The notes under the pieces were generated by a model, which was given only the letters and a program-made list of their open reading frames with translations, was not told where the DNA came from and searched no databases. From positions 7,219-71,218 of IMG/VR virus record IMGVR_UViG_3300045988_059494: 64,000 nt of DNA. One strand, given 5' to 3'. The position numbers were made by a program, and so were the translations under genes. Shown piece after piece: positions 1,439-48,010 of the stretch (positions are counted from its first letter, which is position 1; the number at the start of each line of letters is the position of its first letter). This DNA is from a virus.

Positions 1439-1441
1439 GAG

Positions 1442-31231: not shown

Positions 31232-32719
31232 TTAGTTCTTATCAGCGATCTTTCCGCCAAGGAAGCCAGCCAGCATAGCCTTTACATCAATGCCGAGAGA
31301 CTCACTCAGTCCCTCAGAAATCTGAGCGACATTATTGATAATATCTCCAGAGAGCTTGCTTGTGTTATCACCAAACATCACAATCTTATCAACATTGGTA
31401 TACGCCTGACCAGTTGCTTCTGCGATAGCCGGGAGCTGCTGGAAGTACATCTTGAGGGCTTCCATCTGCATATCCATCTTAGCAGCTTCACCATACTGCT
31501 TCATGGCTTCTGCCTTCTTCATAAGACCTTCAGCTTCTGCCTCAGCCTTTGCCTGAATAGCAGCTGCCTCTGCTTCACCACGAGCCTTTGCAGCTGCGGC
31601 TTCAGCCTCACCCTGAATACGAATAGCTTCTGCGGTTGCACGCTGTGCTTCAGCTCGCTGCTCTGCTTCAAAACGTTCAGCTTCTGCGGTCTTCTGACGC
31701 TCATAGAGGTCAGCCTCAGACTGCTTCTGCGTTGCGTAGAGTCGCGCATCAGCTTCCTGCTGAGCGGCATACTTCTTAGCCTCAGCGGTCTTCTTTACCT
31801 CAGCTTCCAGAGCACGTTCCTTGATAGTAACTTCGCGTTCCTTAAGGTCGATTTCCTTCTCCTGACGAGCAATATCTGCGTCAGCCGCTGCAACGTCACG
31901 CAGCTTGCGCTGGTTCTCAGACTCGATTTCCATAGCAGCATTAGCCTGAGCCTGCTTAGTATCGGATTCCTGCTTCAGCTGAGCCTTCTGGATAGCAAGA
32001 CTATTATTGCGCTTAGCAATCTCTTCCTCAGCCTTTACACGAGCGTCATTAGAAGCCTTAGCATTTTCTGCTTCAGCGACTGCAATCTCACGCTGGGCAT
32101 TAGACTTAGCAATAGCAGCATCCTTGCGAATCTGCTCGACATTATCAATACCAAGGTTGGTGATAACATCATTGTCATCAGAGAAGTTCTGAACATTAAA
32201 GGAAACCAGTTCCAGACCGAAACGAGCCAGATCAGGCACCGCATTTTCCTGTACCTTTTCGGAGAATGCCTTGCGGTCGCCAACCATCTCGGTCAGCTTC
32301 ATCTGACCTACAATCTCACGGATATTACCTTCAAGGAGATCGTTAATCTTCTGAGCAATCTCCGCACGGGATACATTCAGAAAGTTCTGTGCAGCAAGAG
32401 CAATCATTTCATCGGTCTGTCCTACTCGTACAGAAACAGTGGAGTCAACGCGTACATTGATGTATTCCGCGGTGGGAACAGCAGATCCTGTCTTTACGTC
32501 GATCTGAATAGCGCCAAGTGCCAGCTTATCCATTCGCTCAAGGAAAGGAATTTTAATACCAGCCTTGCCAGCAAGCACTCGCGGTTTCTTGTGCATACCA
32601 GAAATGATATATGCCACATCCGGCGGAGCCTTTACATAGCTCGAAACAAGAAATACGATAATCGCAAGCACGATAATCGCTACGGGAACAAAGGGAAGGA
32701 TAGTAGTTAGAATTTCCAT
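31232..32719 (-). CDS. SPFH/band-7 (flotillin-like) membrane protein
   Basis: N-terminal TM, SPFH domain, long Ala/Glu-rich coiled coil (EAERFEAEQRAEAQRATAEA...); 495 aa. Confidence 0.7.
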   Translation of the reverse strand: MEILTTILPFVPVAIIVLAIIVFLVSSYVKAPPDVAYIISGMHKKPRVLAGKAGIKIPFLERMDKLALGAIQIDVKTGSAVPTAEYINVRVDSTVSVRVGQTDEMIALAAQNFLNVSRAEIAQKINDLLEGNIREIVGQMKLTEMVGDRKAFSEKVQENAVPDLARFGLELVSFNVQNFSDDNDVITNLGIDNVEQIRKDAAIAKSNAQREIAVAEAENAKASNDARVKAEEEIAKRNNSLAIQKAQLKQESDTKQAQANAAMEIESENQRKLRDVAAADADIARQEKEIDLKEREVTIKERALEAEVKKTAEAKKYAAQQEADARLYATQKQSEADLYERQKTAEAERFEAEQRAEAQRATAEAIRIQGEAEAAAAKARGEAEAAAIQAKAEAEAEGLMKKAEAMKQYGEAAKMDMQMEALKMYFQQLPAIAEATGQAYTNVDKIVMFGDNTSKLSGDIINNVAQISEGLSESLGIDVKAMLAGFLGGKIADKN

Positions 32720-32757: not shown

Positions 32758-33327
32758 TTAAAGCATTTCAATACATTTCTTTGCCTGCTGTTCCATATCT
32801 TCGATTACAGTATCAAGATGAACGGGATAGCAGTTATGTGAATCAACGCCTACGTGGTAGATGAAAGGAATTTCATTATAGAAGTTGGTAGTCTGATGTG
32901 TGTGTCCAAAAAGATTGCAAGTCACCTGCTTGAGGGATTCTTGCTCAAGATTGCCGGTCAAAGTTGGATAATGCGATGCGTAAAAATGATACTTGCGATA
33001 AGTGAAAGCGTAAGCATCAAATACCGGAATATTTGCTTTAAGATATGCTTCGCGTCTAGCGCGAGTATCGTGATTACCGCCAACAATGAGTTTCTTACCA
33101 TTCATGCGGTTTAGCATTTCAATACCTTTTTCAAGGTTTTCGCTTCCACCAAGCATTAGGTCGCCGCAGATAATCAAAGTATCATCTGGAGAAACAAGCT
33201 CATTATTTCGTGTAATAATAGCTTCATTCATCTCTTCGACACTATCAAAACCGCGAGCCTTCCAGATAAATTCCTTATCATGGTTCAAGTGGTAGTCGCT
33301 AGAAACATAAATATTCAGTGTTATCAC
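32758..33327 (-). CDS. calcineurin-like metallophosphoesterase (candidate 2',3'-cyclic/3'-phosphatase for RNA repair)
   Basis: DxH...GDxxxxG...GNHD motifs; adjacent to the polynucleotide kinase. Confidence 0.6.
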   Translation of the reverse strand: MITLNIYVSSDYHLNHDKEFIWKARGFDSVEEMNEAIITRNNELVSPDDTLIICGDLMLGGSENLEKGIEMLNRMNGKKLIVGGNHDTRARREAYLKANIPVFDAYAFTYRKYHFYASHYPTLTGNLEQESLKQVTCNLFGHTHQTTNFYNEIPFIYHVGVDSHNCYPVHLDTVIEDMEQQAKKCIEML

Positions 33328-33406
33328 TCCTTTTGATTAGTTAATAAAGTAGTCTATTACTCTTGCTAAATCTTCTACTACTGCATAGCTAAACCCTCCT
33401 CTGCAT

Positions 33407-33922
33407 TCAATCTTTTCTCTCGTATCCATGCACATTGATTTTAATATCCGAAAAGCCCCACTTAGTCTTAGGAAGCTCCTTTGCGCTCGGGATCGAAAAT
33501 CCTTTCTTCATATTCTTGATTGCCGAATCCGGCACTCTAGCGAAACCACTACGCTGCGCATTGCGCTTAATTGCAACATCAAGAGGAACATCAATAACCT
33601 CAAAGGTTAGCTTAGTGTGCGGATCTGCTGCCAGTCGACCAAGCAACTTAGCTCGAGAAGCAGGACTGATATGCGTTGCATCAGCAAATACAACATCAAT
33701 ACCAAGTTCCATAGCTTCATTGATCTGTCGCACGAACTCATTGAATACTTCGGTTTCCTTATCGAAGTAGCCATCGTGATCGTTTAAGAGGGACTTCCGC
33801 ACGAAATCTCTGGAAACTACACAAGTGGTGCGGTGATCATCTTCCAGTCGAGCAATCTCTTGCTCGACCCAAGTGGATTTACCACTACCGGGTATACCTA
33901 CCATTACTTTAAGTTCAGTCGT
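33407..33922 (-). CDS. polynucleotide 5'-kinase (P-loop, T4 Pnk kinase-domain-like)
   Basis: VMVGIPGSGKST Walker A; probable start MTTELK with GGAGG SD (track ORF extends upstream). Confidence 0.65.
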   Translation of the reverse strand, partial: TTELKVMVGIPGSGKSTWVEQEIARLEDDHRTTCVVSRDFVRKSLLNDHDGYFDKETEVFNEFVRQINEAMELGIDVVFADATHISPASRAKLLGRLAADPHTKLTFEVIDVPLDVAIKRNAQRSGFARVPDSAIKNMKKGFSIPSAKELPKTKWGFSDIKINVHGYERKD

Positions 33923-34007
33923 CATTCTTCGTACCTCCATATCTAGTTCACAAAAGATACCTTGCCAATGAATACATCTTGTATTTGGTGCACTACAGCG
34001 TTTGCAA

Positions 34008-34232
34008 TCATTCTCCCGTTGCAATGTTATTTACCTTTCTTATAAGGCGCTTAGCCGCGTTCTGCGACATATTTGTTTTTATACCATGACAATATGCCGT
34101 ATAGCGATTACAGTATTTGCATTTCTTTATCCACGTGTCATCAAGCAAATTAGAAAAACGATCTTTATCTTCTAACTCATGGACGCCAAAGAAACATAGC
34201 CATCTCATAGCTTTTTCCCTCCCAAATCTCAA
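34008..34232 (-). CDS. hypothetical small protein (74 aa)
   Basis: ORF track. Confidence 0.3.
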   Translation of the reverse strand: MRFGREKAMRWLCFFGVHELEDKDRFSNLLDDTWIKKCKYCNRYTAYCHGIKTNMSQNAAKRLIRKVNNIATGE

Positions 34233-34249
34233 TAAAAGGATCCCACATC

Positions 34250-34435
34250 TTAAATAACCCCTCTCATTCTTCGATTAGCTTCTGCCATAACCCACGCAAT
34301 ATCTTCATCAGATACTTCGGTTTCAAACTCGATCGAACAATTCTCTCCTTTTGCTCTTGCTTCAAGAATGATGTTAACCGCATCCTCGAGATCTTGCTGA
34401 TGTTCAGCAAACGAAAGAAAAGGGAGAGTATACAT
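34250..34435 (-). CDS. hypothetical small protein (61 aa)
   Basis: ORF track. Confidence 0.3.
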   Translation of the reverse strand: MYTLPFLSFAEHQQDLEDAVNIILEARAKGENCSIEFETEVSDEDIAWVMAEANRRMRGVI

Positions 34436-34605
34436 ATTATTCCTCCTTAATAAACCGATAGATAATATTCATAGACTCTTCAACTGTACACATCTCACTA
34501 TTGGCAAGTGCGCCACTCCAATCGAGGTCGTCAATAATTGCGTCAAGGCGCTTCCATGCTTCAAGAGCCTTGTTCTTATCAATCATATTTATTTTCTCCT
34601 CTCTT

Positions 34606-34642
34606 TCACTTTCTATATATATTATAATATATATTTATAAAA
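34606..34642 (-). promoter_or_regulatory. conserved AT-rich promoter block
   Basis: ctttctatatatattataatatatatttataaaaaaa (plus); family member. Confidence 0.45.
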
Positions 34643-34644
34643 AA

Positions 34645-34674
34645 ATCAAAGGTTCTATTTCTAGAACCTTTGAT
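34645..34674. terminator. hairpin terminator
   Basis: ATCAAAGGTTCTA/TAGAACCTTTGAT. Confidence 0.55.
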
Positions 34675-34680
34675 TTTTAT

Positions 34681-35199
34681 TTAATTGGTTTGCTCAGTAA
34701 AATAGACTTGTGAAAGTCCACCAATGTCATCAATCTCGTAACTATCTACTTTTAATGACCAATCTTCCCATAAGTCCTGATGCGCTAACAAGAAAGCCAA
34801 TGGATCTTTTCGAAAAGTTTTATAGTCTTCGTCAGACAGCTCAAGATCTCCATTGTAATATCCGCCTCGTAGATGGCCAGTAACATAATCTACTTCTGCG
34901 GTTACATTAACTTTATGAGTTACCTCAGCCGGAGTATCAAGAGAGATATAATATTTTTTGCCATTGATTTTCTTCCAGAATGAATAATTACTCTTTGGAT
35001 AGCCGACTTTTCTTTCTAGAATATCTTCCTTGGTATTAGACTGCAATATAATGACCGGGTTTCTACGCGGGTCTTGACCAATTGGGTGGAAATCTACCCC
35101 ATCCGCGCCAGTGATTTCAAGCCATTCTTTCCATCCTGTTTCTCTTTGCCATTCAGCCATAATTATTCCTCTTCGCTCTGGATTAGGGATTCGATACAC
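34681..35199 (-). CDS. hypothetical protein (172 aa)
   Basis: ORF track. Confidence 0.3.
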   Translation of the reverse strand: MYRIPNPERRGIIMAEWQRETGWKEWLEITGADGVDFHPIGQDPRRNPVIILQSNTKEDILERKVGYPKSNYSFWKKINGKKYYISLDTPAEVTHKVNVTAEVDYVTGHLRGGYYNGDLELSDEDYKTFRKDPLAFLLAHQDLWEDWSLKVDSYEIDDIGGLSQVYFTEQTN

Positions 35200-36005
35200 T
35201 TGCGATTTTCGCCGACAAACACGGGAATGTGTTTCTCAATAATCCATTCAGAACGAGTATACTCAATTCCATCGGGAGTTACATCTTGGACCTGAGTCTT
35301 AATACAACAAGAGCCACGCTGATAGGAAATGGGATAACTATCCCACTCAATACCAATATCAGAGAGCATCTTCTTGATTTGGATGCAAGATTTACCTTGA
35401 AGCTCTTTATGAGAGAAATTAGCCTGGCCTACCATCTGGATAGAATTGCGGATTGCATCTGACTGGCGCCAATAAATGAGGTTGGTGACCTCTTCCTTGG
35501 GGATATTGAAGCAACGGGCATCGAACATAGCGCCTTTAGACTTGGCGGTAATTAAAGCTCTCATATACTCTTGATGCTTTTGCTGAATTTCAACGTCTTG
35601 CGGAATTAAGCCAGTTTTCCAACAGGTCTCTTCATCGAGAACGAGTGCATCAAAAGCCTTATTAAAAGCCATAGTCGCCATAGATGCGGCGACAGAGCAC
35701 ATCTTCTGAACCTCATAATCAAACCATGCGGAGCTATTCAGTCGTTTATAATCTACAAGGATAAGAGTAATTTCATCACTCTGGGTATATCCAAGTACAC
35801 AACCTTGAATATTTTGGCACAGGTATCTCATAGTTTCTTGCATAGCAGTTCCAAGAATATGATCGAAAGGCTTGTTAAAACCACGAGTGAAAGTGTGGAA
35901 AGCCTTGCCATCAATGCGGATTGCGACAGGAGTTCTGCGCATCAGTCTAGCCTTAGGAACCGCTTCATAAAACTCTTTCATGCGCATACCAAGTTTATCA
36001 GTCAT
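35163..36005 (-). CDS. Thg1-like protein (tRNA-His guanylyltransferase family, 3'-5' nucleotide addition)
   Basis: N-terminal VAIRIDGKAFHTFTRGF...GYTQSDEITLIL matches Thg1/TLP palm-domain motifs; 280 aa. Confidence 0.75.
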   Translation of the reverse strand: MTDKLGMRMKEFYEAVPKARLMRRTPVAIRIDGKAFHTFTRGFNKPFDHILGTAMQETMRYLCQNIQGCVLGYTQSDEITLILVDYKRLNSSAWFDYEVQKMCSVAASMATMAFNKAFDALVLDEETCWKTGLIPQDVEIQQKHQEYMRALITAKSKGAMFDARCFNIPKEEVTNLIYWRQSDAIRNSIQMVGQANFSHKELQGKSCIQIKKMLSDIGIEWDSYPISYQRGSCCIKTQVQDVTPDGIEYTRSEWIIEKHIPVFVGENRKCIESLIQSEEE

Positions 36006-36152
36006 TCTTTGCTTGCTCCTTCCATTTCTTTCGCTTTTTGTTTAAGTTCCTCAATACTTGTTCCAAGAAGAGCGAAGAAAGTTTCATCGTCCATTTTGGC
36101 GAGATCTCGTTCCATGTTTTCGAGAGTCTTAGATAGCTTACGTAGCTTCATT
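36003..36152 (-). CDS. small hypothetical protein (49 aa), translationally coupled (ATGA overlap) to the Thg1-like gene
   Basis: MKLRKLSKTLENMERDLAKMDDETFF... Confidence 0.3.
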
Positions 36153-36419
36153 AGTCTTTATCCTTTCCGAAAATAGAGGTATTATTATTAAAGAAGCTAC
36201 CGATCCAACCAAGAGTACCTGCACACAGCGGGATCATATCCTTAGTGAACCATGCTACATTGAACATAGTATTCAAACCAGTAGCGAGAATATTACCAAT
36301 CGTGATTGAAGCAATCCAACCACCAAGATAAGCGAACCAAAAATATACGAATGGCTCAATTACAATTAGGAAAACGATACTTACCAACGCACCAATCACA
36401 GACAGAAAATCATCAAACA
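36151..36419 (-). CDS. small membrane protein
   Basis: Hydrophobic; probable start MFDDFLSVIG inside track ORF 36151..36504. Confidence 0.3.
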
Positions 36420-36571
36420 TCCGATTACACTCCTTACGATAAAATAAATAAAATAGACAATAGAGATCATAAGCGCCCACGAACCTATAATAAGTCCTCC
36501 CCAAATGGCAAGTCGAGAGCCGATCCCAACGACTAAGAATATGCTAATAAATAGCATAGATAAAAGTAGTA

Positions 36572-37480
36572 TTAGAAATAACATTTCTGTTTTCGATGCC
36601 CCTTTTCGTAGCAGTAATCTTTGCAATGTTTCGCAGCGGTGTCAGGTCTATGTTCCTTAGGCTGATCGCAATCTAAAGAACCATGCTTATGACATCTACA
36701 AGCAGCATGGCCGCGGAACCATTCACGATAGAAATGTTTACAGTCGTAACATTCTTTGTTCTTCAGTTTTCTCTTTCTCGATCTTTTCGTAGCTACATCA
36801 ATAGTCTGTCTATGTACAGATTGGACTTTTGCCGTTAATCCTCTCTTCATTAACCTATTCAGATTAACTGGCGTGTAGTTAATTACATCAGAGCAAACAT
36901 TCAGATGTCGGTCATCATCTTTGTGACAACGATCATGGATATGACCATGAATGTTGAATACCCAAGGCATCATAGGAAGCGGCTCATGCGATAGAATAAG
37001 TTTCTCACCAATCATGAGAGGCCCTTCATAGATCTCGTCAAACAGATTGTTGTCCGCGCTCACTTCCCAATAAACGAAAGGAGCGTGAAAATCATATATC
37101 TCACTGATAGAATACTTACAACCGGGATATAGCTGCTTCATTTTATCAAGAGCTTCAGATTTACTCCAAAGCTCTGTATCATAAATTCTCTTGACAATCT
37201 TGCGCTCGTAGTTACTGCGGCCGGCATCATGGTTTCCCATAATAAGTACCTTATAACCACGAAGTTTAGCGCACACAGCTGGGTCGCCGCAATCTCCAAG
37301 AATAATGAGCGTATCCTTCTTACCAACTTTACTATTGATAAGTTTAACTTGTTCTTCCGCGGAGGGACGTTCTGGCATACCTGCTACAATCTCTTCATCA
37401 TTGAAGTGAGGATCAGAGTAGATATATACCGTGCCTTGAGCGTGCCAGTGGTCAAAGATCTTATAGAGTCCAGGGATCAT
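36572..37480 (-). CDS. metallophosphoesterase with C-terminal Cys/His-rich zinc-binding tail
   Basis: YIYSDPHFNDEE...LIILGDCGD...GNHD motifs; C-terminal CYDCKHF...CRCHKHGSLDC. Confidence 0.55.
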   Translation of the reverse strand: MIPGLYKIFDHWHAQGTVYIYSDPHFNDEEIVAGMPERPSAEEQVKLINSKVGKKDTLIILGDCGDPAVCAKLRGYKVLIMGNHDAGRSNYERKIVKRIYDTELWSKSEALDKMKQLYPGCKYSISEIYDFHAPFVYWEVSADNNLFDEIYEGPLMIGEKLILSHEPLPMMPWVFNIHGHIHDRCHKDDDRHLNVCSDVINYTPVNLNRLMKRGLTAKVQSVHRQTIDVATKRSRKRKLKNKECYDCKHFYREWFRGHAACRCHKHGSLDCDQPKEHRPDTAAKHCKDYCYEKGHRKQKCYF

Positions 37481-37649: not shown

Positions 37650-38384
37650 TCACCACGGAAAAGTAGGCATCGGCTCTACCTTATGGAGATTACGCTGGTG
37701 ACGTCCCATAATGTTGGCGAAGGTGTTGTAGTCAGGTACATTGCCAAATACAAGAAAATCATCTAGCTCTTTGTAGGTAAAACCAAGATTATCTTCGTCA
37801 GTTTTTCCACTAAGACCATCTTCCGGTACTTTGTTAATAAACTCTTCCGGCAAGCCCAGTTCTCTACCAATAGCAAGAACTTCCTTTACTGTAAGGTTCG
37901 ACAGAAGAGAGAAATCACCTGCGGAGTCGCCAAACTTAGTAGAATAACCAATAAAATCCTCGCTCTTGTTGCAGGTATTTGCTACTCTACCATGTTCAAG
38001 CGCAGCAATAGCATAAAGCACTGTCATGCGGACGCGGGCAGGAGAGTTAGAAGTAACTTGGGGATTGTTTTTAACCGTACTATCAAAATCATACCCCTCA
38101 TCAATAGCATGATATAAGGATTCACAGACATCGCCAATATTGATTTCGTAACTCCGAATACCGAGATAATCAATTACTTTATTGGCAATGTCGATGTCAT
38201 GCTGATTGCCCTGCGGCATCTTTACACCAATTACCCTATCTTTTCCGAGCGCTTTAACGAGCAGGGCCGCAGTTACGGTGCTATCTTTACCGCCAGAAAT
38301 ACCTACGATTGCCTTGCAATCTGCGCCATTCTGCACAAAATAGTGCTTAGTCCAATCTAAAATCTTAGGAATTACTTTCTCCAT
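37650..38384 (-). CDS. nadE: NH3-dependent NAD+ synthetase
   Basis: PP-loop SGGKDST motif, 244 aa. Confidence 0.8.
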   Translation of the reverse strand: MEKVIPKILDWTKHYFVQNGADCKAIVGISGGKDSTVTAALLVKALGKDRVIGVKMPQGNQHDIDIANKVIDYLGIRSYEINIGDVCESLYHAIDEGYDFDSTVKNNPQVTSNSPARVRMTVLYAIAALEHGRVANTCNKSEDFIGYSTKFGDSAGDFSLLSNLTVKEVLAIGRELGLPEEFINKVPEDGLSGKTDEDNLGFTYKELDDFLVFGNVPDYNTFANIMGRHQRNLHKVEPMPTFPW

Positions 38385-38833
38385 GTTTTGAGTTCTCCTT
38401 CTGTTTCAAGTCTATTATATACTTCTCTCAATATTGCGAACGCATTACCAAGTCCAGCGCGATCATCGAGCAAAATATTGTAATAAATTTTTCGTGCTGG
38501 GATATGCTTTTCTGGTGGAAGAATATCTTCATTGATATAGTCAAATGGAATATTATTGTCGCGTAAATATTTTTCAATATACGGATAACGCTCTTCCGCA
38601 GAGGCGGTAAATACAACGAGCTTGGCATATGGTTCCCATGCCCGCAGCAAGTTAATTACGCCATCATAGCGCCACTGTTCATCTTTGAAATTATGGACAG
38701 TATAATCAAAGTCAAATGCTATGATTATACTGCCATACTTCTTATATTCGCTATATAGTCTTTCAGCGGCATTATGAGTGTAGATATATGGATCACATAA
38801 AACCTTCTCGGTAGAGTCTTGCTCTAATATCAT
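38372..38833 (-). CDS. HAD-superfamily phosphatase
   Basis: Motif I FDFDYTV; 153 aa. Confidence 0.5.
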   Translation of the reverse strand: MILEQDSTEKVLCDPYIYTHNAAERLYSEYKKYGSIIIAFDFDYTVHNFKDEQWRYDGVINLLRAWEPYAKLVVFTASAEERYPYIEKYLRDNNIPFDYINEDILPPEKHIPARKIYYNILLDDRAGLGNAFAILREVYNRLETEGELKTWRK

Positions 38834-40517
38834 GTAATGTATCCTCCTTAATCATAGTGCCATTACGGAAAATGGGCTGAAGCAGATTGTCTTCACCAAG
38901 GTGCTCATTCCAAGTCAGCTCATCTTCATAATTCTGACCATCAAGAGAAACTCGGCAGCAACCCTTTTGAGATCTCTTCCAGCTAAGCGCTTTAGGCTGC
39001 TTATAGATCATAATAGGCTTGCCATTTGCATCTTCTGCGTAAGTAGCTTTTACCGCGATGCCGAAAGTATCTCGCGTATAAGGGTTAAACTTACCATCTT
39101 CCTCAAGGCACATGAACGAGAACGAACCCACGCCAAGTGAAGTATTATTGATAGCAAATCCATTATTCACAAGGCGATGGTAAATGCGGGCGCAACGCTG
39201 AGGGGTAATACTGTCGCCGTAGATTGCTTTGATATGGGGATCAAGAACCTTATAACCCTTGCTATTGATGGTGCCACCGAAGATGTCCCATAGGCGCCAA
39301 ACAGTGCCCTTATCCTCAGAGGTCAGTTCATAGTTTTCAATCAGTTTGACGTTATAACCCTCAATGTACCAATATTTGCAATCAGTACAAGCGCCGCGCT
39401 CATTAGTCCATTCGACTGTAATGTCAGCAAGAGCATACTCTCCATTGTAAGAGAAAATCTGCTGAGTGTCCTTCTCTAAGTCTCGCTCAAAGAACTCAGC
39501 AATAAATTCATTGGGATCATCTTTCAGCTGTTCCCACTCTTGCTCGTCGAGATAGATAATTTCCTTACCCGCGATAATCTCTACAGGATCGCCGCTATCG
39601 CCACGAATAGAAAGGCAACCATCATGCGCCATAATTTCGTCTTTTAACTGCGGAAGGATCTTATCTACGAGTCTCCAATAGTCATAACTATCAGATACCA
39701 TAGAGAAATTGTGGTGAGGATAAATCTCTGTTAGAAGTCTGCGGATGTGGGTAATCTCATCACCATCAACCGCGTAATTAGAACACATAACACTGTGCTC
39801 TGTAGAGATTGCGCCATAAGCAACAGGCTCAGTAGCGCAATCGCAATTATAGTTCTTCTCAAGCCACATGATTGCGGGTACAGTAGCAGTATTCAAGAAA
39901 GAAAGACACCAACCCGCAGAACTCTTAATCGCGGATTCCGCAGACTGCTGACCGCGCATAGAAAAATCGCCAAGCAGTCGAGCAACAGAAACATCATCAT
40001 CGCAACTAATATCGTGATACTTCTGCACAATCTGCCGATACCGATAGCCGACTTCCGCGGATACCTGCGTGTGCCACATGGTTGCAGACAGCAGAGTTTC
40101 AATGGTATTTACAAGCCAAACAAAGTTTGGATGGGTATTAGTAATCTCAATCTGCGGAACTCCAATCGCAGTTCTAGTACCTTCCGGGACAGCGGAGATT
40201 TCAAGCGGCAAATAACCGAGCCGATGCAGTTCTCTAATCTTATCAGACTGGAAAGCACCTTTACCGAGCGTGGCATTGAGCACACGTTCATACTCGGTTA
40301 CTACCTCGTCTTCCGAACGATTAAAGAAGCTATCGTTGAAGCCTGCAATAAGATATTCTTTAATAAAGGCTTGCAGACCAAAGAGAGTAACTTTATCAAC
40401 TCCCTGCAGCCTACTCATACGAGGAGTATAGTAACTAACCATCTTAGTTAATCCCGCAGGATACTGTTCATGGTGAGTGCTCTTATAGAAATCAATCATT
40501 AAAAGAGGATTAAACAT
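38793..40517 (-). CDS. nicotinamide/nicotinate phosphoribosyltransferase (NAMPT/PncB family)
   Basis: MFNPLLMIDFYKSTHHEQYP N-terminus typical of the NAPRTase family; 574 aa. Confidence 0.75.
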   Translation of the reverse strand: MFNPLLMIDFYKSTHHEQYPAGLTKMVSYYTPRMSRLQGVDKVTLFGLQAFIKEYLIAGFNDSFFNRSEDEVVTEYERVLNATLGKGAFQSDKIRELHRLGYLPLEISAVPEGTRTAIGVPQIEITNTHPNFVWLVNTIETLLSATMWHTQVSAEVGYRYRQIVQKYHDISCDDDVSVARLLGDFSMRGQQSAESAIKSSAGWCLSFLNTATVPAIMWLEKNYNCDCATEPVAYGAISTEHSVMCSNYAVDGDEITHIRRLLTEIYPHHNFSMVSDSYDYWRLVDKILPQLKDEIMAHDGCLSIRGDSGDPVEIIAGKEIIYLDEQEWEQLKDDPNEFIAEFFERDLEKDTQQIFSYNGEYALADITVEWTNERGACTDCKYWYIEGYNVKLIENYELTSEDKGTVWRLWDIFGGTINSKGYKVLDPHIKAIYGDSITPQRCARIYHRLVNNGFAINNTSLGVGSFSFMCLEEDGKFNPYTRDTFGIAVKATYAEDANGKPIMIYKQPKALSWKRSQKGCCRVSLDGQNYEDELTWNEHLGEDNLLQPIFRNGTMIKEDTLHDIRARLYREGFM

Positions 40518-40535
40518 TTATGCAAAACTCCTTTA

Positions 40536-41345
40536 TTAAAGAATAATAGGATCGACAGTGATGAGATCAGTTGGGAAAGTACCAGCAAGAGAGTTGGTTG
40601 TAAAGATATGCTCAACCAGTCCACTCTTGATTAGGTCTCCTTCCATGATAGTGGTTTCGCAATGAGTAATAAAGAGATAAATGTTCTTCGCACCCTCAGC
40701 CTTAAGTGCCTTAGCGGAATGGAAGAAGGTGCCGCCGCGCGAACAAATATCATCAACAATGAGAATATTTTTACCTCTTACAGCTTCCTTGTTGATAATA
40801 TCAATGCCTTTAATGTTACCAGTCGCCCAATCGCGCTTCTTCATGCCGAAACTATAAGGACGATTAAACTGTTCAGAATATCTCTTCATTGCTCCCTCAT
40901 CAGGATAATACATCACAAGATCCGGATCGTTAATTGTGTTGATCGCACGCTCAACAAAAGGAGTGTTATCACGATTCTCGATACGATCAATAAGTGCCAG
41001 ACTTACATTGCTGTGTGCATCATAGACAACTACCTTAGAGAAATTGAGCGAGTTGATAATGCCTGCGAAGCTCTTGAGAGTAAAAACATCATTAGGACTC
41101 TTTACTCTGTCCATGCGGGCGTGCGGACAGTAGGGCATATAAAGCGAGATACTATCATTGCAATAGTGGTTCTTTAAGCAAATAAGCGAGAATAATTCTG
41201 CATCGTTTTCATAGTCCCATCGTATTGCGGAAACAAAAGTATGACTCAGCTTCGGGGGTTCTAAATGCAAAGTCCCATCTGGAAAATGACTCTGAATAAC
41301 TGGCAGCCAAGTTCCAGGGTAATGGAAAGTTTTAACAGAAAGCAT
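40536..41345 (-). CDS. prs: ribose-phosphate pyrophosphokinase (PRPP synthetase)
   Basis: PRPP-binding ILIVDDICSRGGTF motif; likely start MLSVKTF. Confidence 0.8.
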   Translation of the reverse strand: MLSVKTFHYPGTWLPVIQSHFPDGTLHLEPPKLSHTFVSAIRWDYENDAELFSLICLKNHYCNDSISLYMPYCPHARMDRVKSPNDVFTLKSFAGIINSLNFSKVVVYDAHSNVSLALIDRIENRDNTPFVERAINTINDPDLVMYYPDEGAMKRYSEQFNRPYSFGMKKRDWATGNIKGIDIINKEAVRGKNILIVDDICSRGGTFFHSAKALKAEGAKNIYLFITHCETTIMEGDLIKSGLVEHIFTTNSLAGTFPTDLITVDPIIL

Positions 41346-41361
41346 AAATATTCTCCTCTCC

Positions 41362-41874
41362 TTACACAATTTTAATCTGGCAAGACTTCATTACTGCCAG
41401 AGCTGCTTCATGCGCTTCCTTGGTAGTACCGGCACACCAATCCTTATGGCACACAATTTCTCTATTGGGATAGAGTGCTCGAAGGATCAGCGCATTCGAT
41501 ACAACACAAATGTCAGTGCAAACACCGCAAATCTCAATCTGCGCAGTATCCTTTACCGGCATATTCTTCCACATAAAGGTACCAAAAGTATCCTTATCAA
41601 CCACATAAAGGTTCTTAATTGCAGAAGCCGCGTCTGTCAGCTCTGGAACAATATCCCAACCCTCGGTATTCTTCACACAATGCTGAACCGGCAGGTACTT
41701 GCCTTCAAGAGTATTGAGGTAATCATCATCGTGGGTGTCACGAGTAAAGACAACCATATCGTAGTCCTTAATATGATCGGCAATGTTCTTTGTCGCAGTC
41801 TGAGCAGCTTCAGAACCAAGTGCGCCGGTCACAAAATCGTTCTGCATATCAATTACAATAAGAATTTTCTTCAT
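41362..41874 (-). CDS. isochorismatase-family nicotinamidase (PncA-like)
   Basis: MKKILIVIDMQNDF start with catalytic Asp; Cys in ICGVCTDICV. Confidence 0.65.
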   Translation of the reverse strand: MKKILIVIDMQNDFVTGALGSEAAQTATKNIADHIKDYDMVVFTRDTHDDDYLNTLEGKYLPVQHCVKNTEGWDIVPELTDAASAIKNLYVVDKDTFGTFMWKNMPVKDTAQIEICGVCTDICVVSNALILRALYPNREIVCHKDWCAGTTKEAHEAALAVMKSCQIKIV

Positions 41875-42518: not shown

Positions 42519-43784
42519 TCATACTTCCTGTGCTTCCTCCATATCCGGTGCATTTTCAGTCTCCTTAATGATGCCTTCAAGTACCTTAAACTCGTAGGTC
42601 TTAGACTTGAAAGCAGTGAAGGAACGACGATTTACAATACGAATTACAACGCCTTCCTTGACATGAGTTTTGCCAATTGGGTCTGCAAGATCCTCGAAGT
42701 AATCATTGATGCGCTTCAACAGATCATCTACGGTAGTAAACTCAAAGTTGTCAATCACTGGTACTCGATTAAAGCCATGCTCATCACACCATGCAGTAAT
42801 CTCGTCAGGAGTCCACTCACGCTCGCCGTTCTCAGAAGTGATGCGGTAAATCCACATATGAGACTCACCCGGCTCGCATCCATAAGAGAAAATAGAACGC
42901 TTGCCGAACTGTTTCTGGAAAGCCTTGTCTTTCAGCTTCGAGTTATCGCCAATCGGCATGATAGTATCTCCATCGCCGAGACCATAGTAACCTACAACCT
43001 CGTAAAAGACTTCCATACCCGGCTCAAGGAACGGCTTCAGCGCCTCGTGATGCGGCAGTCGGAACTTATTATCACCGTAGTAGCCACCATCATCCTCAGA
43101 GACTACACAACGACGAGTACCAAGTACATAAGCCTGCTTAGTACGCTTCTTCATATGAAACAGGCGACGGAAGAAACCATTCGGCAGCTCCGCAACAGTA
43201 TTCATAGAACGCTGAGAAGTACCATGCATTTTAAGAGTCATGTTTAGCTGATCGCCCGGACGGAACGCATCAAGATTGTAAGCAAGCTGTGCAGTATCAA
43301 TGTGCATTGCAAAATCCGGATATACAACGCCCTCTGCCTTACGACCCTTATAAGAGGTCTTAGCCACAGTCTGCGGATACTTGCGCTTCGGGATATACTT
43401 GCGGCAGAACTCTTTATCATTGACGGTATTTACCTTATCACCATCCTCCCAGTGCTGATCGCCAAATACTTCATAGACATGGTCAAGAGAAATGACAATA
43501 CCAGAACTCTGGTTGCCACGGAGCTTAATTGCCCGGATGTGAGAGCTATTTTCCAAATATCCGCCTTGAGGAGTGCCATCGAGATTTTTTCGATATAAGG
43601 TGAAAGCATCGCCGAACCATCTCTCAATCTCTCCGTCTGTAGGAAGATAAAGCACTAACTCATTTTCTTTCATGTTGGACCCAACAATAACTCCTTCATT
43701 AAAACAATCTGCAAGCCACAGATTATCAGAATTGGGATCTTTATGCAGATTATTCAATTTTGTCACTAAAGCATAGTAAGCCAT
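42519..43784 (-). CDS. ATP-dependent RNA ligase (Rnl2-like nucleotidyltransferase with N-terminal extension)
   Basis: Motif I KMHGTS (KxHGxN), motif IV EGVVIR, motif V FKSK; 421 aa. Confidence 0.7.
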   Translation of the reverse strand: MAYYALVTKLNNLHKDPNSDNLWLADCFNEGVIVGSNMKENELVLYLPTDGEIERWFGDAFTLYRKNLDGTPQGGYLENSSHIRAIKLRGNQSSGIVISLDHVYEVFGDQHWEDGDKVNTVNDKEFCRKYIPKRKYPQTVAKTSYKGRKAEGVVYPDFAMHIDTAQLAYNLDAFRPGDQLNMTLKMHGTSQRSMNTVAELPNGFFRRLFHMKKRTKQAYVLGTRRCVVSEDDGGYYGDNKFRLPHHEALKPFLEPGMEVFYEVVGYYGLGDGDTIMPIGDNSKLKDKAFQKQFGKRSIFSYGCEPGESHMWIYRITSENGEREWTPDEITAWCDEHGFNRVPVIDNFEFTTVDDLLKRINDYFEDLADPIGKTHVKEGVVIRIVNRRSFTAFKSKTYEFKVLEGIIKETENAPDMEEAQEV

Positions 43785-44499
43785 TTAACTCATGTTCCTC
43801 CTCTTTACTAATTCGTTTATATATAAAACCTTTATATGTGTTTCTCTGCCCATTTAATACTCGATAAATTGCTTTATCAGTTTTTGCATCTGGACAAAAT
43901 TCTCTATATGCTGAAATTGCAGTAGGAAAAATAGCTAATAATTGACCATCTTTATCATACTTCGCAATCGGCTATCTTCTTGCTTCCAACGCCTTTTTCT
44001 TTGCATCTTCTCGATGACCATCTTGATAGGCTTGTTTTAATTTTTCACTTCGCTCTTTTTTTAAGGAAGGATTGTCGATAAACTTCTATTTTAGAGAGTT
44101 GCTAATCTTTTCGTTTCTTTTGTTACTATAAGTTCGATTTTTAGCAGCTAGAGTCATATGCTGTCGATACTCTGGATCTTCCCATAGCGACTTAACAGAC
44201 TCGCCTATCTGTTTTCTAACTTCTTCCGTTTGATAGTTTCCGCCTGGAGAGACATTGTAACCAAAACTTGTATCTAAAAGATTTAATTCTTTGATTGTGT
44301 CTATTTCTTTTTGTCGAATTAAATCTTCATTATCGGATTCTAATATCACTTCTTTAGTTACATTTTCCCAGCCATATTTTTCAATAGCGTAGCCGACACG
44401 CTATCCTTTATATCTCCCCGATGCTCGCTGTTCAATGGAATTTCTAGTAATTCCGCAGTATTTCTTCCCATTTGGGAAAGTGTATAAATAACAAATCAT
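43750..44499 (-). CDS. GIY-YIG homing endonuclease (I-TevI-like architecture) with 3 in-frame TAG codons
   Basis: AGGAGG SD; MICYLYTFPNGKKYCGITRNSIEQRASGRYKG-TAG-RVGYAIEKYGWENV (GIY-YIG), NUMOD-like repeats, C-terminal DNA-binding tail; track ORF 44086..44349 is the middle fragment. Confidence 0.65.
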
Positions 44500-44595
44500 C
44501 TAGATAACCTCCTAAATCTTTCTACTTATATTAAAAATTACTAGGAGGTTATTTAGAAGTTTTGTCCAAACTTTCTTCCTTATAATAAGCTCTTA

Positions 44596-44772
44596 TCTTA
44601 TTCATCTACATCCTTATAGGAAACAACTTCCACATTCTCAAGTTTGGTTGCAATAGATACCTTGCCGGTATAGATTACCACAACCTTGGTCTTACGATTT
44701 ATGCCAATGATCTTGCCGGTGTAACCACCAGCCACATTAACAATAGTACCCTTGCATACATAAGGCATCATA
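44596..44772 (-). CDS. small hypothetical protein (58 aa)
   Basis: Strong SD AGGAGGTTATAATATG; MMPYVCKGTIVNVAGGYTGKIIGINRKTKVVVIYTGKV. Confidence 0.35.
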
Positions 44773-44792
44773 TTATAACCTCCTCTTGTTAA

Positions 44793-45186
44793 TTAAAGCG
44801 TAATGTCAATTCCTTTATCGTGCAAGATGCGGATACACTCTTGCAGATAGTTGTCATCATGTTCAGGATAAATCATATTACCCTGCTTTGCGGCTTCATA
44901 AATCTCCTTATATCGGAAATCAGAAATCCATGTATCTTCACCCAGTGTAGCACCTCGCCAGTTAGGATCCTTCCAAATCTTATCTGGGTGATAACCACGC
45001 GCTTCCATCTCGTCCATAATGAGATAGTGATAAGCTACTAAAAGCGCGGGATCGTGAGTAAACGCATAATCTACAGTAGCGTGTTTCTTACCCCAACCCT
45101 TTCCCCGAAGCGCTGCACATTCTCGATGCTGACCAAGAAGGCGCTGTCGATCGAGATGTGGAATTAACTTTTGATGCCAGATACGC
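44793..45186 (-). CDS. pyrimidine-dimer DNA glycosylase (T4 DenV / endonuclease V family)
   Basis: MRIWHQKLIPHLDRQRLLGQHRECAALRG resembles the DenV N-terminus; likely start at the internal M of track ORF 44793..45311. Confidence 0.55.
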
Positions 45187-45192
45187 ATTATA

Positions 45193-45588
45193 TCACTCCT
45201 TAATAACTTCTTGCCAATGGTGATAGAGATAGGCACTTCCGCACAAAGGTTCAATTCCCTCTCGTTCAACAATACGATCGCCATCTCCAGTCTTAAGAAT
45301 GAAACAACCACTTTTAATCATAGAAAGTAGATCGCCCTGATAGAAATGGCAACCAATATATCGCATATCTCTCGCAGGAACAACCTTTACTTTATAGCCA
45401 CCTTCAAGCGTGTAAAGATCACCATAAGAATAGTCATCTTCCAACTTACACTCTACCCAATCATCAGAATAGCTAGAGAAAAATAATCCCGCGGGTTTGT
45501 CCAAATGCCCAAAGAATCTAAAGTTCTCAATACCTCCGCAATCGTTGACTAAATCTTTCAGCTTGAAATAATCCTGCAAATTTTTCAT
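45193..45588 (-). CDS. hypothetical protein (131 aa)
   Basis: ORF track. Confidence 0.3.
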   Translation of the reverse strand: MKNLQDYFKLKDLVNDCGGIENFRFFGHLDKPAGLFFSSYSDDWVECKLEDDYSYGDLYTLEGGYKVKVVPARDMRYIGCHFYQGDLLSMIKSGCFILKTGDGDRIVEREGIEPLCGSAYLYHHWQEVIKE

Positions 45589-45756
45589 TACTTTTCCTCC
45601 TCTTTACAAGAACATTTCCGACAAGAGAAAAATAATATCTTTCTATCTTTCTTGTGGCAGTAATACTCATAATCAGGATGGTCGAACATATCATTACGCC
45701 CGTCTCCTAAATCTCTAACCTCAAGATATTTACAGCCTTGCATTTATCTTTCCCTC

Positions 45757-45795
45757 ACTTTCTATATATATTATATAATAAATATATAATATTTT
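45757..45795. promoter_or_regulatory. conserved AT-rich promoter block (possibly serving the plus-strand islet)
   Basis: ttctatatatattatataataaatatataatatttt. Confidence 0.35.
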
Positions 45796-45889
45796 CAAAT
45801 TACTCTTATTGTTTGGTCAAAAGCTGATATACTTCTATTATCATTTTTTAGATAACAATAGAGAAAATAATGAAAGGGGCAGATTGTCT

Positions 45890-46153
45890 ATGTATTCTCA
45901 GATGATGAGTGGAGAAAAAGTAACTCCCTATTTAGTGCGTTTAGTAGCTGATACTGAAGACGAGATTGCCACCCTTCCTACCCACTATGCCCCTGGCAGT
46001 ACCTGCGAGGTTATTGCAACCTCTAGTGTTTATAGATTGAATAACCAGGGTCAATGGATTAAACAAAAGTCAAGTAGTGGCGGAGGCGGTGGGACAGTTG
46101 TCGTTGATGGCAGCTTAGCCGATATTTCTGACATTGATAATTTATTTGGTTAA
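45890..46153 (+). CDS. hypothetical protein with Gly5 linker (plus-strand islet gene 1)
   Basis: SD AAAGGGG; MYSQMMSGEKVTPYLVRL... Confidence 0.4.
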   Translation: MYSQMMSGEKVTPYLVRLVADTEDEIATLPTHYAPGSTCEVIATSSVYRLNNQGQWIKQKSSSGGGGGTVVVDGSLADISDIDNLFG

Positions 46154-46164
46154 GGAGTGAAAAA

Positions 46165-46422
46165 ATGAGCGTTGCATTAGAAAAGCTAATTGACCTTAAC
46201 CTGTTATCACACTATGACACCAAACTGAAAAGCTGGGTTAAGGAATAGATTGATAACGCTACAAGCGCAGAAATCACTACAAGAGCAGAACTTCCCGAGG
46301 TCGGTGAAGAAGGAAAGATCTATTTTGTAGAAGATGCTATTTTGATTTACACTTCCGAAGGTCGCTATCAAGAGATCGGTGGAACTGGAAGTCCGCAAAC
46401 AATTACTTGGAAAGATTTTTAA
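46165..46422 (+). CDS. tail-fibre N-terminal-motif minigene with in-frame TAG at codon 27 (plus-strand islet gene 2)
   Basis: SD GGAGTGA; MSVALEKLIDLNLLSHYDTKLKSWVKE-TAG-IDNATSAEITTRAELPEVGEEGKIYFVEDAILIY; shares a motif with 55749, 56266 and 57509 proteins. Confidence 0.45.
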
Positions 46423-46426
46423 TTAA

Positions 46427-46462
46427 AAGGGTCGAAGTTAAATACTTCGACCCTTATTTTTT
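46427..46462 (+). terminator. hairpin terminator with T-run
   Basis: AAGGGTCGAAGTtaaatACTTCGACCCTT TATTTTTTT. Confidence 0.6.
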
Positions 46463-46671
46463 TATTCAACAAATTGGAAAAACTCGGTATGACTGCCTAC
46501 ATCATATCTTGTGCCGTCCGCAGTCTCCCACCCACGCATATAATAAATCTTATAATTGGGGTTCATATCCTTGACAGCTTTAGTAATACATTTATACACC
46601 TCTTGTTTAGAAATATTCTCAGCAATAGTAATGCGCTCGCCATTGCTTCTATCGAAATATAATGTACCCAT
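46462..46671 (-). CDS. hypothetical protein (69 aa)
   Basis: ORF track. Confidence 0.3.
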   Translation of the reverse strand: MGTLYFDRSNGERITIAENISKQEVYKCITKAVKDMNPNYKIYYMRGWETADGTRYDVGSHTEFFQFVE

Positions 46672-46673
46672 AC

Positions 46674-47465
46674 TTAAAGCTCCTTCTGGATTGCGGCTTT
46701 CACGATATTATACTGCACATCATCAAGCAGTTCATCGACCTCAGGATCGCAAGACTTACCTACTTTCTCACAAAATGCGTCCGCAGTTACAAGAACATCT
46801 TCCATCGCACTGTTGGCAGAAATGCGCGCTTGCTCAAGATTAAAATATCCCTGCTTAACTGCGACAAGAAATTCTGGATTGCGGGGATGCAGACAATCTT
46901 CGTAAGACTCGCCCTCAGTGTAACGATGGATATACTCCTGTACTCTCAGTAGATGGTGCAGCTGTTTTGGATCGTAGCCATATTTAGCGAGAACTGCGAC
47001 TTTACTAGGGTACTCATGTTCCATCGCATGGTACTTCTCCATAGCAATACCCTTCATGGTTTTTACCGCACTATAAGGGGAATAATGCGCGATTTTCTCG
47101 CGCTCCGCAGTCAGTCTATTCCACTCATCTGCGAAAAGCGGATTTACCCACAGATAAGGAGTGAACAGGATCTCGATGAAATTGAGATTTTGCTTGCGGA
47201 AAGTAGAGAACATCAGGCGAATATCTTTAAGGTCAGTATGCTCATCGTTGGCACGAACATGAGTGGTACTAATAGGTTTCTTATTGAAAACAATCTCCTT
47301 AAAGGTAGGAGTGAGGATCAGTTTGGTATCCACATCGCTGGTCGGGATCTGCAAGCCATAATTTTGAGAACCTTGGAGGAAGATACCTACGATACGAGAG
47401 TTATCAAATCTCTCTTTTGCTTCCTCCAGATGGTCATGAACACGCTGCATAATTTTATTTTCCAT
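46674..47465 (-). CDS. Pol-beta-superfamily nucleotidyltransferase (GS-x9-SDVD motif)
   Basis: GIFLQGSQNYGLQIPTSDVDTKL matches the minimal NTase / OAS / CD-NTase-type active site; probable start MENKIMQ with GGAGG SD. Confidence 0.5.
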   Translation of the reverse strand: MENKIMQRVHDHLEEAKERFDNSRIVGIFLQGSQNYGLQIPTSDVDTKLILTPTFKEIVFNKKPISTTHVRANDEHTDLKDIRLMFSTFRKQNLNFIEILFTPYLWVNPLFADEWNRLTAEREKIAHYSPYSAVKTMKGIAMEKYHAMEHEYPSKVAVLAKYGYDPKQLHHLLRVQEYIHRYTEGESYEDCLHPRNPEFLVAVKQGYFNLEQARISANSAMEDVLVTADAFCEKVGKSCDPEVDELLDDVQYNIVKAAIQKEL

Positions 47466-47793
47466 TATCAATAGCCTCCATTTCTTTAACATATCTCTCG
47501 GGAATAGGATGCGCGGTAATGAGCGTATCCTTACCTCTCCAGATGTAGATGTTGCCTCGATATATTCTGATAGAGCAAGTGTTTGTTTGATTTCTTTTGT
47601 TCTGCAAGTAAGAGAAAAATCGCGGAAACTTCTGGAATTGATTAATCGTTGCACCGGAGCGTTTAGCTTGCTTAGCTAGCTTTTTAGCTTCTGCAAAACT
47701 AGTGCAACCGTCGGTTCGCTGAACAATACGCTCTTTGCTATGTCTTGTAATTCGTCCCATTACTTTACACCTCTTCCTCTCTTTTTGTAGCAT
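47455..47793 (-). CDS. hypothetical protein (112 aa)
   Basis: ORF track. Confidence 0.3.
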   Translation of the reverse strand: MLQKERKRCKVMGRITRHSKERIVQRTDGCTSFAEAKKLAKQAKRSGATINQFQKFPRFFSYLQNKRNQTNTCSIRIYRGNIYIWRGKDTLITAHPIPERYVKEMEAIDNGK

Positions 47794-48010
47794 CTAAATA
47801 AATTCGAATGGTATCCGCCTTACTCTCAAGAGTATTTGCTTCCTCAATGAGATGCTGTGCTTGCCAGTATAGCGCAGTAGCGAATTTATCTAGCTCCTCT
47901 CTTGACTTATCGAAAAGACCCGGATACTCTGCTTCGAGGTCTTCCAAATCCTCCTCTTGATACCATTTTAGACCAAGTTCTGAAAACTTACCCATTAAAT
48001 CTTCCTCCAA
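47765..48010 (-). CDS. hypothetical acidic protein (81 aa)
   Basis: ORF track. Confidence 0.3.
   Translation of the reverse strand: MEEDLMGKFSELGLKWYQEEDLEDLEAEYPGLFDKSREELDKFATALYWQAQHLIEEANTLESKADTIRIYLDATKREEEV

Follow-up and report, generated by a model that had tools for sequence, protein, structure and literature searches.

A five-gene phage cassette that probably encodes an undescribed form of a known NAD+-rebuilding pathway

Which NAD+ pathway could be encoded by five adjacent phage genes is the question raised by a stretch of viral DNA of 64,000 nucleotides (IMG/VR record IMGVR_UViG_3300045988_059494, positions 7,219 to 71,218). This whole stretch is referred to here as the window, and all statements about the phage refer to these 64 kb. 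The block in question consists of five consecutive minus-strand open reading frames (ORFs) at 37650-41874. An initial annotation had recognized five NAD genes here, and Pfam, TIGR and motif evidence agrees with all five of its family assignments. It had also proposed a NARP2-like salvage route running from ribose-5-phosphate through phosphoribosyl pyrophosphate (PRPP) and nicotinamide or nicotinate mononucleotide (NMN or NaMN). On the basis of the current results, the cassette probably represents a form, not described before, of a phage pathway already known to rebuild NAD+. The reading that we favor, with moderate confidence, is that the block is a single transcription unit specifying a deamidated variant of NARP1, which would rebuild NAD+ via nicotinate and deamido-NAD. 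The five genes are listed below from the upstream end.

41362-41874, minus strand: PncA, nicotinamidase/isochorismatase, 170 aa (PF00857, E=3e-25)
40536-41369, minus strand: Adps, Prs-like ADP-ribose pyrophosphokinase; mechanical ORF with a TTG start at 41369 (PF14572/PF00156)
38793-40517, minus strand: Namat variant, 574 aa, NAMPT_N + NAPRTase (PF18127 + PF04095; NF006629 431 bits, cutoff 405)
38372-38833, minus strand: small capless HAD-family phosphatase, 153 aa (four HAD motifs)
37650-38384, minus strand: NadE, single-domain NH3-dependent NAD+ synthetase, 244 aa (TIGR00552 162 bits, cutoff 63.65)

The true start of Adps is likely the ATG at 41345 (40536-41345, 269 aa), which has the ribosome-binding site GGAGAGGAG ahead of it.

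NARP1 offers the closest comparison for the two central genes. This system was defined from adjacent genes of the Prs family (PF14572) and the Nampt family (PF18127/PF04095), in which Adps pyrophosphorylates ADP-ribose (ADPR) and Namat couples the ADPR pyrophosphate (ADPR-PP) with nicotinamide (Osterman et al. 2024, bioRxiv 10.1101/2024.02.11.579819). The window has the same Pfam pair side by side. The 574-aa protein gave 397 bits to the SPbetaL1 Namat (structures 9W5X/9W5W; PMC12774641), but only 145 to the Xanthomonas (Xcc) NAMPT and ~123 to human NAMPT, and it clustered with Namat, not NAMPT, in neighbor-joining trees. Similarly, the Prs-like protein reached 136-163 bits with phage Adps sequences (validated SPbetaL1 enzyme: 136 bits, 38% identity) compared with 59 bits with E. 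coli Prs, from which it is as distant as validated Adps is. It lies under the curated cutoff of every Prs model (TIGR01251: 93.6 vs 113), matches phrog_619 (E=5e-68) and carries the Adps motifs ARMDR, FTLK and DDICSxGGTF, the corresponding Prs motifs being ARQDR, ITAK and DDMIDTGGTL. By these comparisons, the Prs-like/NAMPT-like pair belongs to the Adps and Namat clades of NARP1. Thus, the link to phage NAD+ reconstitution made in the initial annotation holds, whereas its PRPP- and NMN/NaMN-based route is not supported.

The same annotation had pointed out that no adenylyltransferase was evident and supposed that a host or neighboring gene would supply one. A Pfam scan covering every ORF of 66 aa or more in the 64 kb found no NMN/NaMN adenylyltransferase (PF01467), NadR, Nudix or Macro domain, and no PncB-type or NadD-type protein was found in the window either. 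The observation is thus correct, but the idea that such an enzyme must be supplied is not supported, because NARP1 builds the dinucleotide directly from ADPR, which already brings the AMP half; the absence is what NARP1 predicts. NARP2 (Nampt + Nmnat, Vibrio phage KVP40) and NARP3 (PnuC + NadR; PMC13464706) resemble the cassette as phage-encoded means of NAD+ restoration. However, both need an NMN adenylyltransferase, and the window NAMPT-family protein lies outside the NARP2 clade and has Adps adjacent to it. With NARP1 the cassette shares adjacent Adps and Namat genes of the same clades, the catalytic His/Arg, most adenine-clamp residues, the lack of an NMN adenylyltransferase and a phage location. 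It differs from NARP1 in a remodelled pocket, an obligate linkage to PncA/NadE, an insertion in the clamp helix and a predicted transferase product that is deamido-NAD rather than NAD+.

The pocket difference is sharply defined. Of 489 alignment columns, only 6 distinguish one type of Namat from the other without exception, namely H187G, G213N/R, D215A, S239G, A242S and G356K/R (SPbetaL1 numbering), and the window protein has H187G, G213N, D215A, S239G, A242S and G356K at these sites; in its own numbering, its pocket signature is G183, N209, A211, G235, S238 and K430, which correspond to H, G, D, S, A and G in canonical Namat. Changes at positions 187, 215, 239 and 242 were found in every variant sub-clade, including the Clostridium and Phass-type sequences. 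In the crystal structure of SPbetaL1 Namat, a hydrogen bond links Asp215 to nicotinamide and Ala242 forms part of the pocket lining, and D215A cuts activity 8-fold; neither residue is kept in the window protein, which has Ala211 and Ser238 instead. Five of the six columns correspond to H191, G217, D219, S241 and A244 of human NAMPT, among which S241 is presumably also a pocket position. In that enzyme D219S is recorded as a substrate-affinity switch and D219A as inactivating, and H191R, G217R and A244M block an inhibitor that occupies the nicotinamide tunnel. Three of these five sites (D215, A242 and the D219 equivalent) are documented nicotinamide contacts. Pairwise alignments gave the same picture: the window protein reads NTAT where two Namats of solved structure and one NAMPT read GTDT, and STEHS in place of ATEHS. 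In a profile alignment of Namat with PncB, whose probability was only 3.4% and which was used at the motif level, the GTS of E. coli NAPRT falls on the GTD of NAMPT/Namat. It should be noted that the Asp of GDFSMRG was considered as the equivalent of human D219, which would have indicated a nicotinamide-specific enzyme; this was rejected, as that Asp is position 188 and the true equivalent is Ala.

Outside the pyridine pocket, the catalytic residues H241, R304 and D306 are retained (His, Arg306 and Asp308 in SPbetaL1), and so are the adenine-clamp residues R36 (SPbetaL1 R40), the Phe at 392 and T398-R399-D400. The clamp helix of the window protein is extended by a 9-aa insertion, and at position 396 there is a Pro, next to a Tyr, so that Tyr396 itself is lacking. 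An insertion of at least nine residues is found in the clamp helix throughout the main clade, to which the window belongs, whereas the canonical GS[FY]TYQYxTRD is preserved in the Phass-type and Clostridium sub-clades. A further insertion of ~85 aa relative to the solved Namat (residues ~319-402; window 39310-39563) has no Pfam match; it is present in a subset of the homologs of each pocket type, giving these a length of ~573-578 aa. Taken by sequence, the 574-aa protein is neither NAMPT nor canonical Namat but a Namat-clade variant with a remodelled pyridine pocket. The initial annotation had asked whether phylogeny would make it a quinolinate or other phosphoribosyltransferase, and this applies only in a modified sense. 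A pocket that has lost the amide-reading residue and gained Ser, Asn/Arg and Lys/Arg fits the anionic nicotinate.

Is the association of this variant with PncA and NadE general? At the nucleotide level, megablast matched the block to none of 50,697 phage genomes, so protein-level searches were needed. We performed three scans of IMG/VR and one scan of GTDB genomes and then searched the ORFs of the loci with the window proteins; part of the loci from separate scans are the same contigs. Phage Phass-1 has all five genes in identical order at 34-49% identity, and the complete set was found in 16 of the first 80 IMG/VR loci, which had been found via the HAD protein (13 in the window order and 3 shuffled). 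The shared order indicates that the grouping is conserved rather than a product of chance. Among 124 aligned viral Namat homologs, all 95 with a neighboring PncA and/or NadE have Ala215 and Ser242, and all 29 without them have Asp or Glu at 215 together with Ala242. When a canonical Namat was used as query, 79 of 79 sequences had the canonical signature and none of the 79 had PncA/NadE within 8 kb. In total, PncA/NadE was found beside none of the ~108 Asp215-type Namats, and beside the variant the linkage persists across at least four gene orders. The earlier proposal that PncA and NadE imply deamidated, Preiss-Handler-like intermediates agrees with our reading. Variant Namats formed a single clade in the first tree, and the placement of the Phass-type branch was unstable; multiple origins of the variant were considered and rejected on this basis.

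These counts also bear on the possibility that the phage runs canonical NARP1 in parallel, with PncA and NadE as auxiliaries that boost the entry and exit of the host Preiss-Handler pathway. Adps and Namat are indeed homologous to the NARP1 enzymes, and hosts normally have PncB and NadD. However, Ala stands in for the amide-binding Asp, and this substitution severely impairs the use of nicotinamide by SPbetaL1 Namat as well as by human NAMPT; PncA and Namat would be rivals for nicotinamide inside one operon; and the complete lack of PncA/NadE beside Asp215-type Namats is hard to square with an independent add-on. We therefore consider parallel operation of canonical NARP1 to be improbable.

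The two partner enzymes have well-characterized relatives. The best solved relative of PncA was the nicotinamidase of P. horikoshii (1ILW/1IM5, E=1e-15). In the alignment with 1IM5, its catalytic triad (D9, K94, C123) and its metal ligands (D46, H48, H65) are all matched, and these residues are at least 95% conserved among 150 cassette homologs; the protein is predicted to convert nicotinamide into nicotinate and NH3. NadE is a single-domain protein without a glutaminase, its SGGxDS loop is conserved among 145 cassette homologs, and its best solved relatives are the NH3-dependent NadE proteins 2E18 (2e-31) and 3FIU (9e-31); it is predicted to convert deamido-NAD into NAD+. The second of these matches, Francisella NadE, is an NMN synthetase and is essentially level with conventional NadE, which could suggest a different route, in which NaMN is the product of the Namat variant, or NadE works as an NMN synthetase (NaMN to NMN), and a host NMN adenylyltransferase completes NAD+. 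This route appears very improbable. The top match, 2E18 from P. horikoshii, is an archaeal-type NH3-dependent NadE, and the M. jannaschii member of this type is specific for nicotinate adenine dinucleotide (NaAD, that is, deamido-NAD) and has no NMN synthetase activity; NMN synthetase co-occurs with NadM, and neither NadM nor NadR is present in the window; and the route would be even more circuitous.

Under the deamidated NARP1 reading, the sequence of events would be as follows. A host NADase defence would cleave NAD+ into ADPR and nicotinamide. Adps would use ATP to convert ADPR into ADPR-PP, and PncA would turn nicotinamide into nicotinate, freeing NH3. The Namat variant, whose pocket lacks the amide-binding Asp and has gained Ser, Asn and Lys, would join nicotinate and ADPR-PP into deamido-NAD, from which the NH3-dependent NadE would form NAD+ at the expense of ATP. 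We infer all of these substrates and products, as well as the counter-defence role, from sequence. That the operon also encodes a predicted nicotinate-producing enzyme and a predicted amidating enzyme for deamido-NAD fits the use of nicotinate by the Namat variant.

What the HAD protein adds to this scheme is suggested by its position. The 153-aa protein has no Pfam hit, but its motifs I-IV (D41, D43, K115, D123 and D124; pattern DxD, S/T, K, DD), invariant in 38 homologs, are those of the HAD superfamily, as is its Rossmann-like core, and its AlphaFold2 model has a predicted local distance difference test score (pLDDT) of 85.6. Variant cassettes without HAD have a 157-aa Macro protein between Namat and NadE (PF01661, E=7e-7), in the same slot as the window HAD; in 929 phage records, members of this Macro family are labelled 'Appr-1-p processing' or 'phosphatase'. 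Of the distinct viral variant Namats, 44 had Macro only, 20 HAD only, 1 both and 21 neither. In the subset ascertained by Namat, the corresponding numbers were 45, 10, 1 and 19 (Fisher's exact P=2e-4, although the observations are not phylogenetically independent). In canonical NARP1 loci, Macro was found in 13, HAD in 11 and both in none. The Macro protein of NARP1 operons is the ADPR-1''-phosphate phosphatase Adpp, which lets NARP1 beat aRES (bioRxiv 10.64898/2026.01.28.702374). Since HAD and Macro alternate in one operon slot and almost never occur together, HAD may be a non-homologous analog of Adpp. It would probably strip phosphate from phosphorylated ADPR, most likely the ADPR-1''-phosphate of aRES-type defences, and the product would enter the pathway at Adps. 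The narrower claim that the substrate is specifically ADPR-1''-phosphate feeding Adps seems about as likely as not. The NARP1-AP system described in the same preprint (Adps-Adpp-Namat) likewise has a phosphatase gene inside the operon, and sister cassettes of the variant place Macro in the window's HAD slot; unlike NARP1-AP, the window phosphatase is a capless HAD of unrelated fold and no Macro domain is present in the window.

The arrangement of the HAD gene varies. In the 80 HAD-ascertained loci, Adps adjoined HAD in 45, 40 of which also had Namat, and the order Adps-HAD-Namat was found in 20; Bacillus phage Megatron has Adps-Namat-HAD and the crAss-like phage cr126_1 has Namat-HAD-Adps. The other side of this survey is that 36 of the 80 loci lacked Adps and Namat, and 18 of these were flanked by radical-SAM genes. 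In these 18 phage loci the small HAD gene is translationally coupled between those of two radical-SAM proteins, and in 8 loci it adjoins a metallophosphoesterase gene. Of two metagenomic homologs, one belongs to a megaphage locus that lacks NAD genes and the other to a bacterial cysDN/cysH sulfate-assimilation operon; a role as 3'-phosphoadenosine 5'-phosphate (PAP) phosphatase is only a lead.

The cassette is not restricted to phages. PncA-Adps-Namat(Ala215)-NadE is chromosomal in many genomes of gut Clostridia, and the best 80 genome hits in GTDB were almost all from Lachnospiraceae, Ruminococcus, Oscillospiraceae and Clostridium. The variant pocket was found in 79 of these 80 hits, all 79 with PncA and/or NadE beside it (PncA itself in 74). 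Some bacterial copies have a long glutaminase-fused NadE or no linked NadE. Housekeeping genes are the neighbors in R. flavefaciens, C. sartagoforme and one Lachnospiraceae genome, and in Dysosmobacter segnis and C. tagluense the loci have the appearance of window-related prophages. NrtR (NUDIX + NrtR_WHD) was found on the same strand within ~150 bp in 51 of the 80 bacterial loci and within 2.5 kb in 57, compared with none of 248 viral loci. It is known that NrtR is released from DNA by ADP-ribose (PMC2330246), which fits ADPR as the pathway input. Macro was present in 5 and HAD in 1 of the 80 bacterial loci. Viral and bacterial Namat sequences interleave in the tree, which suggests repeated exchange and also that phages enrich the cassette for a phosphatase.

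Which activated sugar is used is the point at which the main competitor of our interpretation must be weighed. In this alternative, a PRPP-based Preiss-Handler route, the Prs-like protein would make PRPP, the Namat variant NaMN, host NadD would produce NaAD and phage NadE would complete NAD+. The pocket changes and the PncA/NadE linkage suit nicotinate equally well here, SPbetaL1 Namat keeps PRPP activity in vitro, the window protein has an altered clamp helix, and NrtR also governs classical pncA-pncB-nadD-nadE operons. On the other hand, the Prs-like protein shows the same distance to E. coli Prs that validated Adps does, falls under the curated Prs cutoffs and has Adps-specific motifs, and there were zero discriminating columns in Adps between PncA/NadE-linked cassettes and canonical NARP1 operons. 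R40, the aromatic residue at 392 and T398-R399-D400 are kept, and two variant sub-clades have the canonical GS[FY]TYQYxTRD. Macro ADPR-1''-phosphate phosphatases within cassettes would make sense only if ADPR is a substrate. The PRPP route thus appears unlikely, though it is the strongest of the alternatives, and we infer ADPR to be the input, backed by the Macro Appr-1''-p phosphatases of viral variant cassettes (in 45 of 75 ascertained by Namat, with HAD in 11) and by NrtR beside the bacterial copies.

Several points weigh against the deamidated NARP1 reading. Because the clamp helix has the 9-aa insertion and no Tyr396, the use of ADPR-PP by the window Namat is not guaranteed. If the variant clade arose only once, as it may have, the perfect correlation between pocket and PncA/NadE may represent one event followed by long co-retention. 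NadE is equally similar to the NMN synthetase of Francisella (3FIU), the HAD family also occurs in unrelated contexts, and the detour spends extra ATP compared with canonical NARP1. As to what might be gained in return, we can only speculate that diffusible nicotinamide is trapped as the nicotinate anion, that the last, ATP-driven step is irreversible and leaves the transferase free of inhibition by NAD+, or that the pathway is adapted to hosts whose salvage is wholly of the Preiss-Handler type.

A more ambitious version of the deamidated NARP1 reading holds that the Namat variant catalyses an undescribed reaction, nicotinate + ADPR-PP to deamido-NAD, and that PncA, Adps, this nicotinate ADPR-transferase and NadE, with HAD and Macro interchangeable, make up a fourth NAD+ reconstitution pathway, which in gut Clostridia would serve the NrtR-controlled recycling of ADPR and nicotinamide and which phages would have captured repeatedly as counter-defence. 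We regard this as a proposal that could go either way. In the openly accessible literature on NARP1, NARP1-AP, RyDEP, NARP2, NARP3 and bacterial NARP1, we found no PncA, NadE, HAD phosphatase, nicotinate or deamido-NAD in the context of NAD+ reconstitution. The sole tested bacterial system, Paenibacillus foliorum NARP1, is 72% identical to SPbetaL1 Namat and uses nicotinamide (PMC12774641). The bacterial nrtR-prs-nadV operons of Shewanella and Acinetobacter (PMC2330246) likewise have a dedicated Prs paralog beside a NadV-like gene under NrtR, but they and bacterial NARP1 are both without PncA and NadE. The classical Preiss-Handler operon nrtR-pncA-pncB-nadD-nadE, for example in Clostridium acetobutylicum (PMC2330246), resembles our cassette in having PncA first and NadE last, in the implied deamidated intermediates and, for the bacterial cassettes, in the proximity of NrtR. 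What differs is its center, where PncB and NadD (nicotinate to NaMN to NaAD, with PRPP and ATP) are replaced by Adps and the Namat variant.

If the proposal is true, a new enzymatic step would be added to NAD metabolism, and the NARP1 scaffold would have been retuned from nicotinamide to nicotinate. Both kinds of cassette are now annotated as 'nicotinamide phosphoribosyltransferase' and 'ribose-phosphate pyrophosphokinase', and the signature Ala215/Ser242 + Gly187/Gly239 (SPbetaL1 numbering) would tell them apart. A second, non-homologous phosphatase may counter aRES-type defences, which evade canonical NARP1. Finally, a phage counter-defence module would be tied to an operon that is widespread on the chromosomes of gut Lachnospiraceae, Ruminococcus, Oscillospiraceae and Clostridium, which bears on ADP-ribose and niacin recycling there.

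The signals around the cassette, all on the minus strand, were as follows.

41961-41939, minus strand: terminator-like hairpin closing the upstream transcription unit; 9-bp stem GAGAGCCTT/AAGGCTCTC, then TTTTATTTTT
41917-41883, minus strand: candidate promoter and ribosome-binding site before the pncA ATG; extended -10 TGATATAAT (TGnTATAAT) at 41917-41909, GGAG at 41886-41883
37638-37618, minus strand: terminator-like hairpin closing the cassette; 9-bp stem AAGGGAGCT/AGCTCCCTT, then TATTTTTTAT

The cassette-closing hairpin lies 12 nt past the NadE stop codon. A generic promoter scan gave no signal above the shuffled expectation; the candidate promoter was read from the sequence itself, and the assignment of promoter and ribosome-binding site is offered as a suggestion.

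With regard to the genome context, this is a large phage, whose window encodes NrdD/NrdG, DNA polymerase III (Pol III) alpha, DnaB, gyrase A/B, DNA ligase, PhoH, an endolysin and 12 tRNAs; a relative, 96-97% identical, is an IMG/VR contig of 144.5 kb. The endolysin (28194-28937, minus strand) has an S-layer-homology domain, and the anaerobic ribonucleotide reductase NrdD/NrdG lies at 944-3670 (minus strand). Both fit an anaerobic Firmicute host, in agreement with the prophage-like relative in Dysosmobacter segnis. A set of genes resembling RNA/tRNA repair lies on both sides of the NAD cassette (32758-37480 and 42519-49288, minus strand), with the following members.

32758-33327, minus strand: metallophosphoesterase
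33407-34024, minus strand: AAA_33 P-loop kinase
35163-36005, minus strand: Thg1-like tRNA-His guanylyltransferase
36572-37480, minus strand: metallophosphoesterase
42519-43784, minus strand: RNA ligase
46674-47654, minus strand: nucleotidyltransferase
48177-48503, minus strand: cREC_REC cyclic-phosphate-processing domain
48485-49288, minus strand: RNase T-like exonuclease

An RtcB ligase is found between Adps and Namat in 7-11 related cassettes. An SPFH/flotillin-like protein is encoded a few kb downstream of the cassette (31232-32719, minus strand), and in crAss-like phage cr126_1 an SPFH gene (6420-7211 of its locus) lies directly downstream of the Namat-HAD-Adps operon. DNA polymerase III alpha is present as two minus-strand ORFs (6821-9334 and 4267-5673), between which are a GIY-YIG ORF (6431-6643) and a helix-turn-helix ORF (5798-6181); the split looks like a homing-endonuclease insertion. 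In the cluster of 12 tRNAs, a tRNA-like gene at 59553-59626 (minus strand) has an 8-nucleotide anticodon loop (GTTAAAAG), for which ARAGORN gives the four-base anticodon taaa. A DUF2828/DUF7788 protein and an AAA/STAND-like ATPase (51817-53391 and 58416-59528, respectively, minus strand) are located amid tRNA and structural genes.

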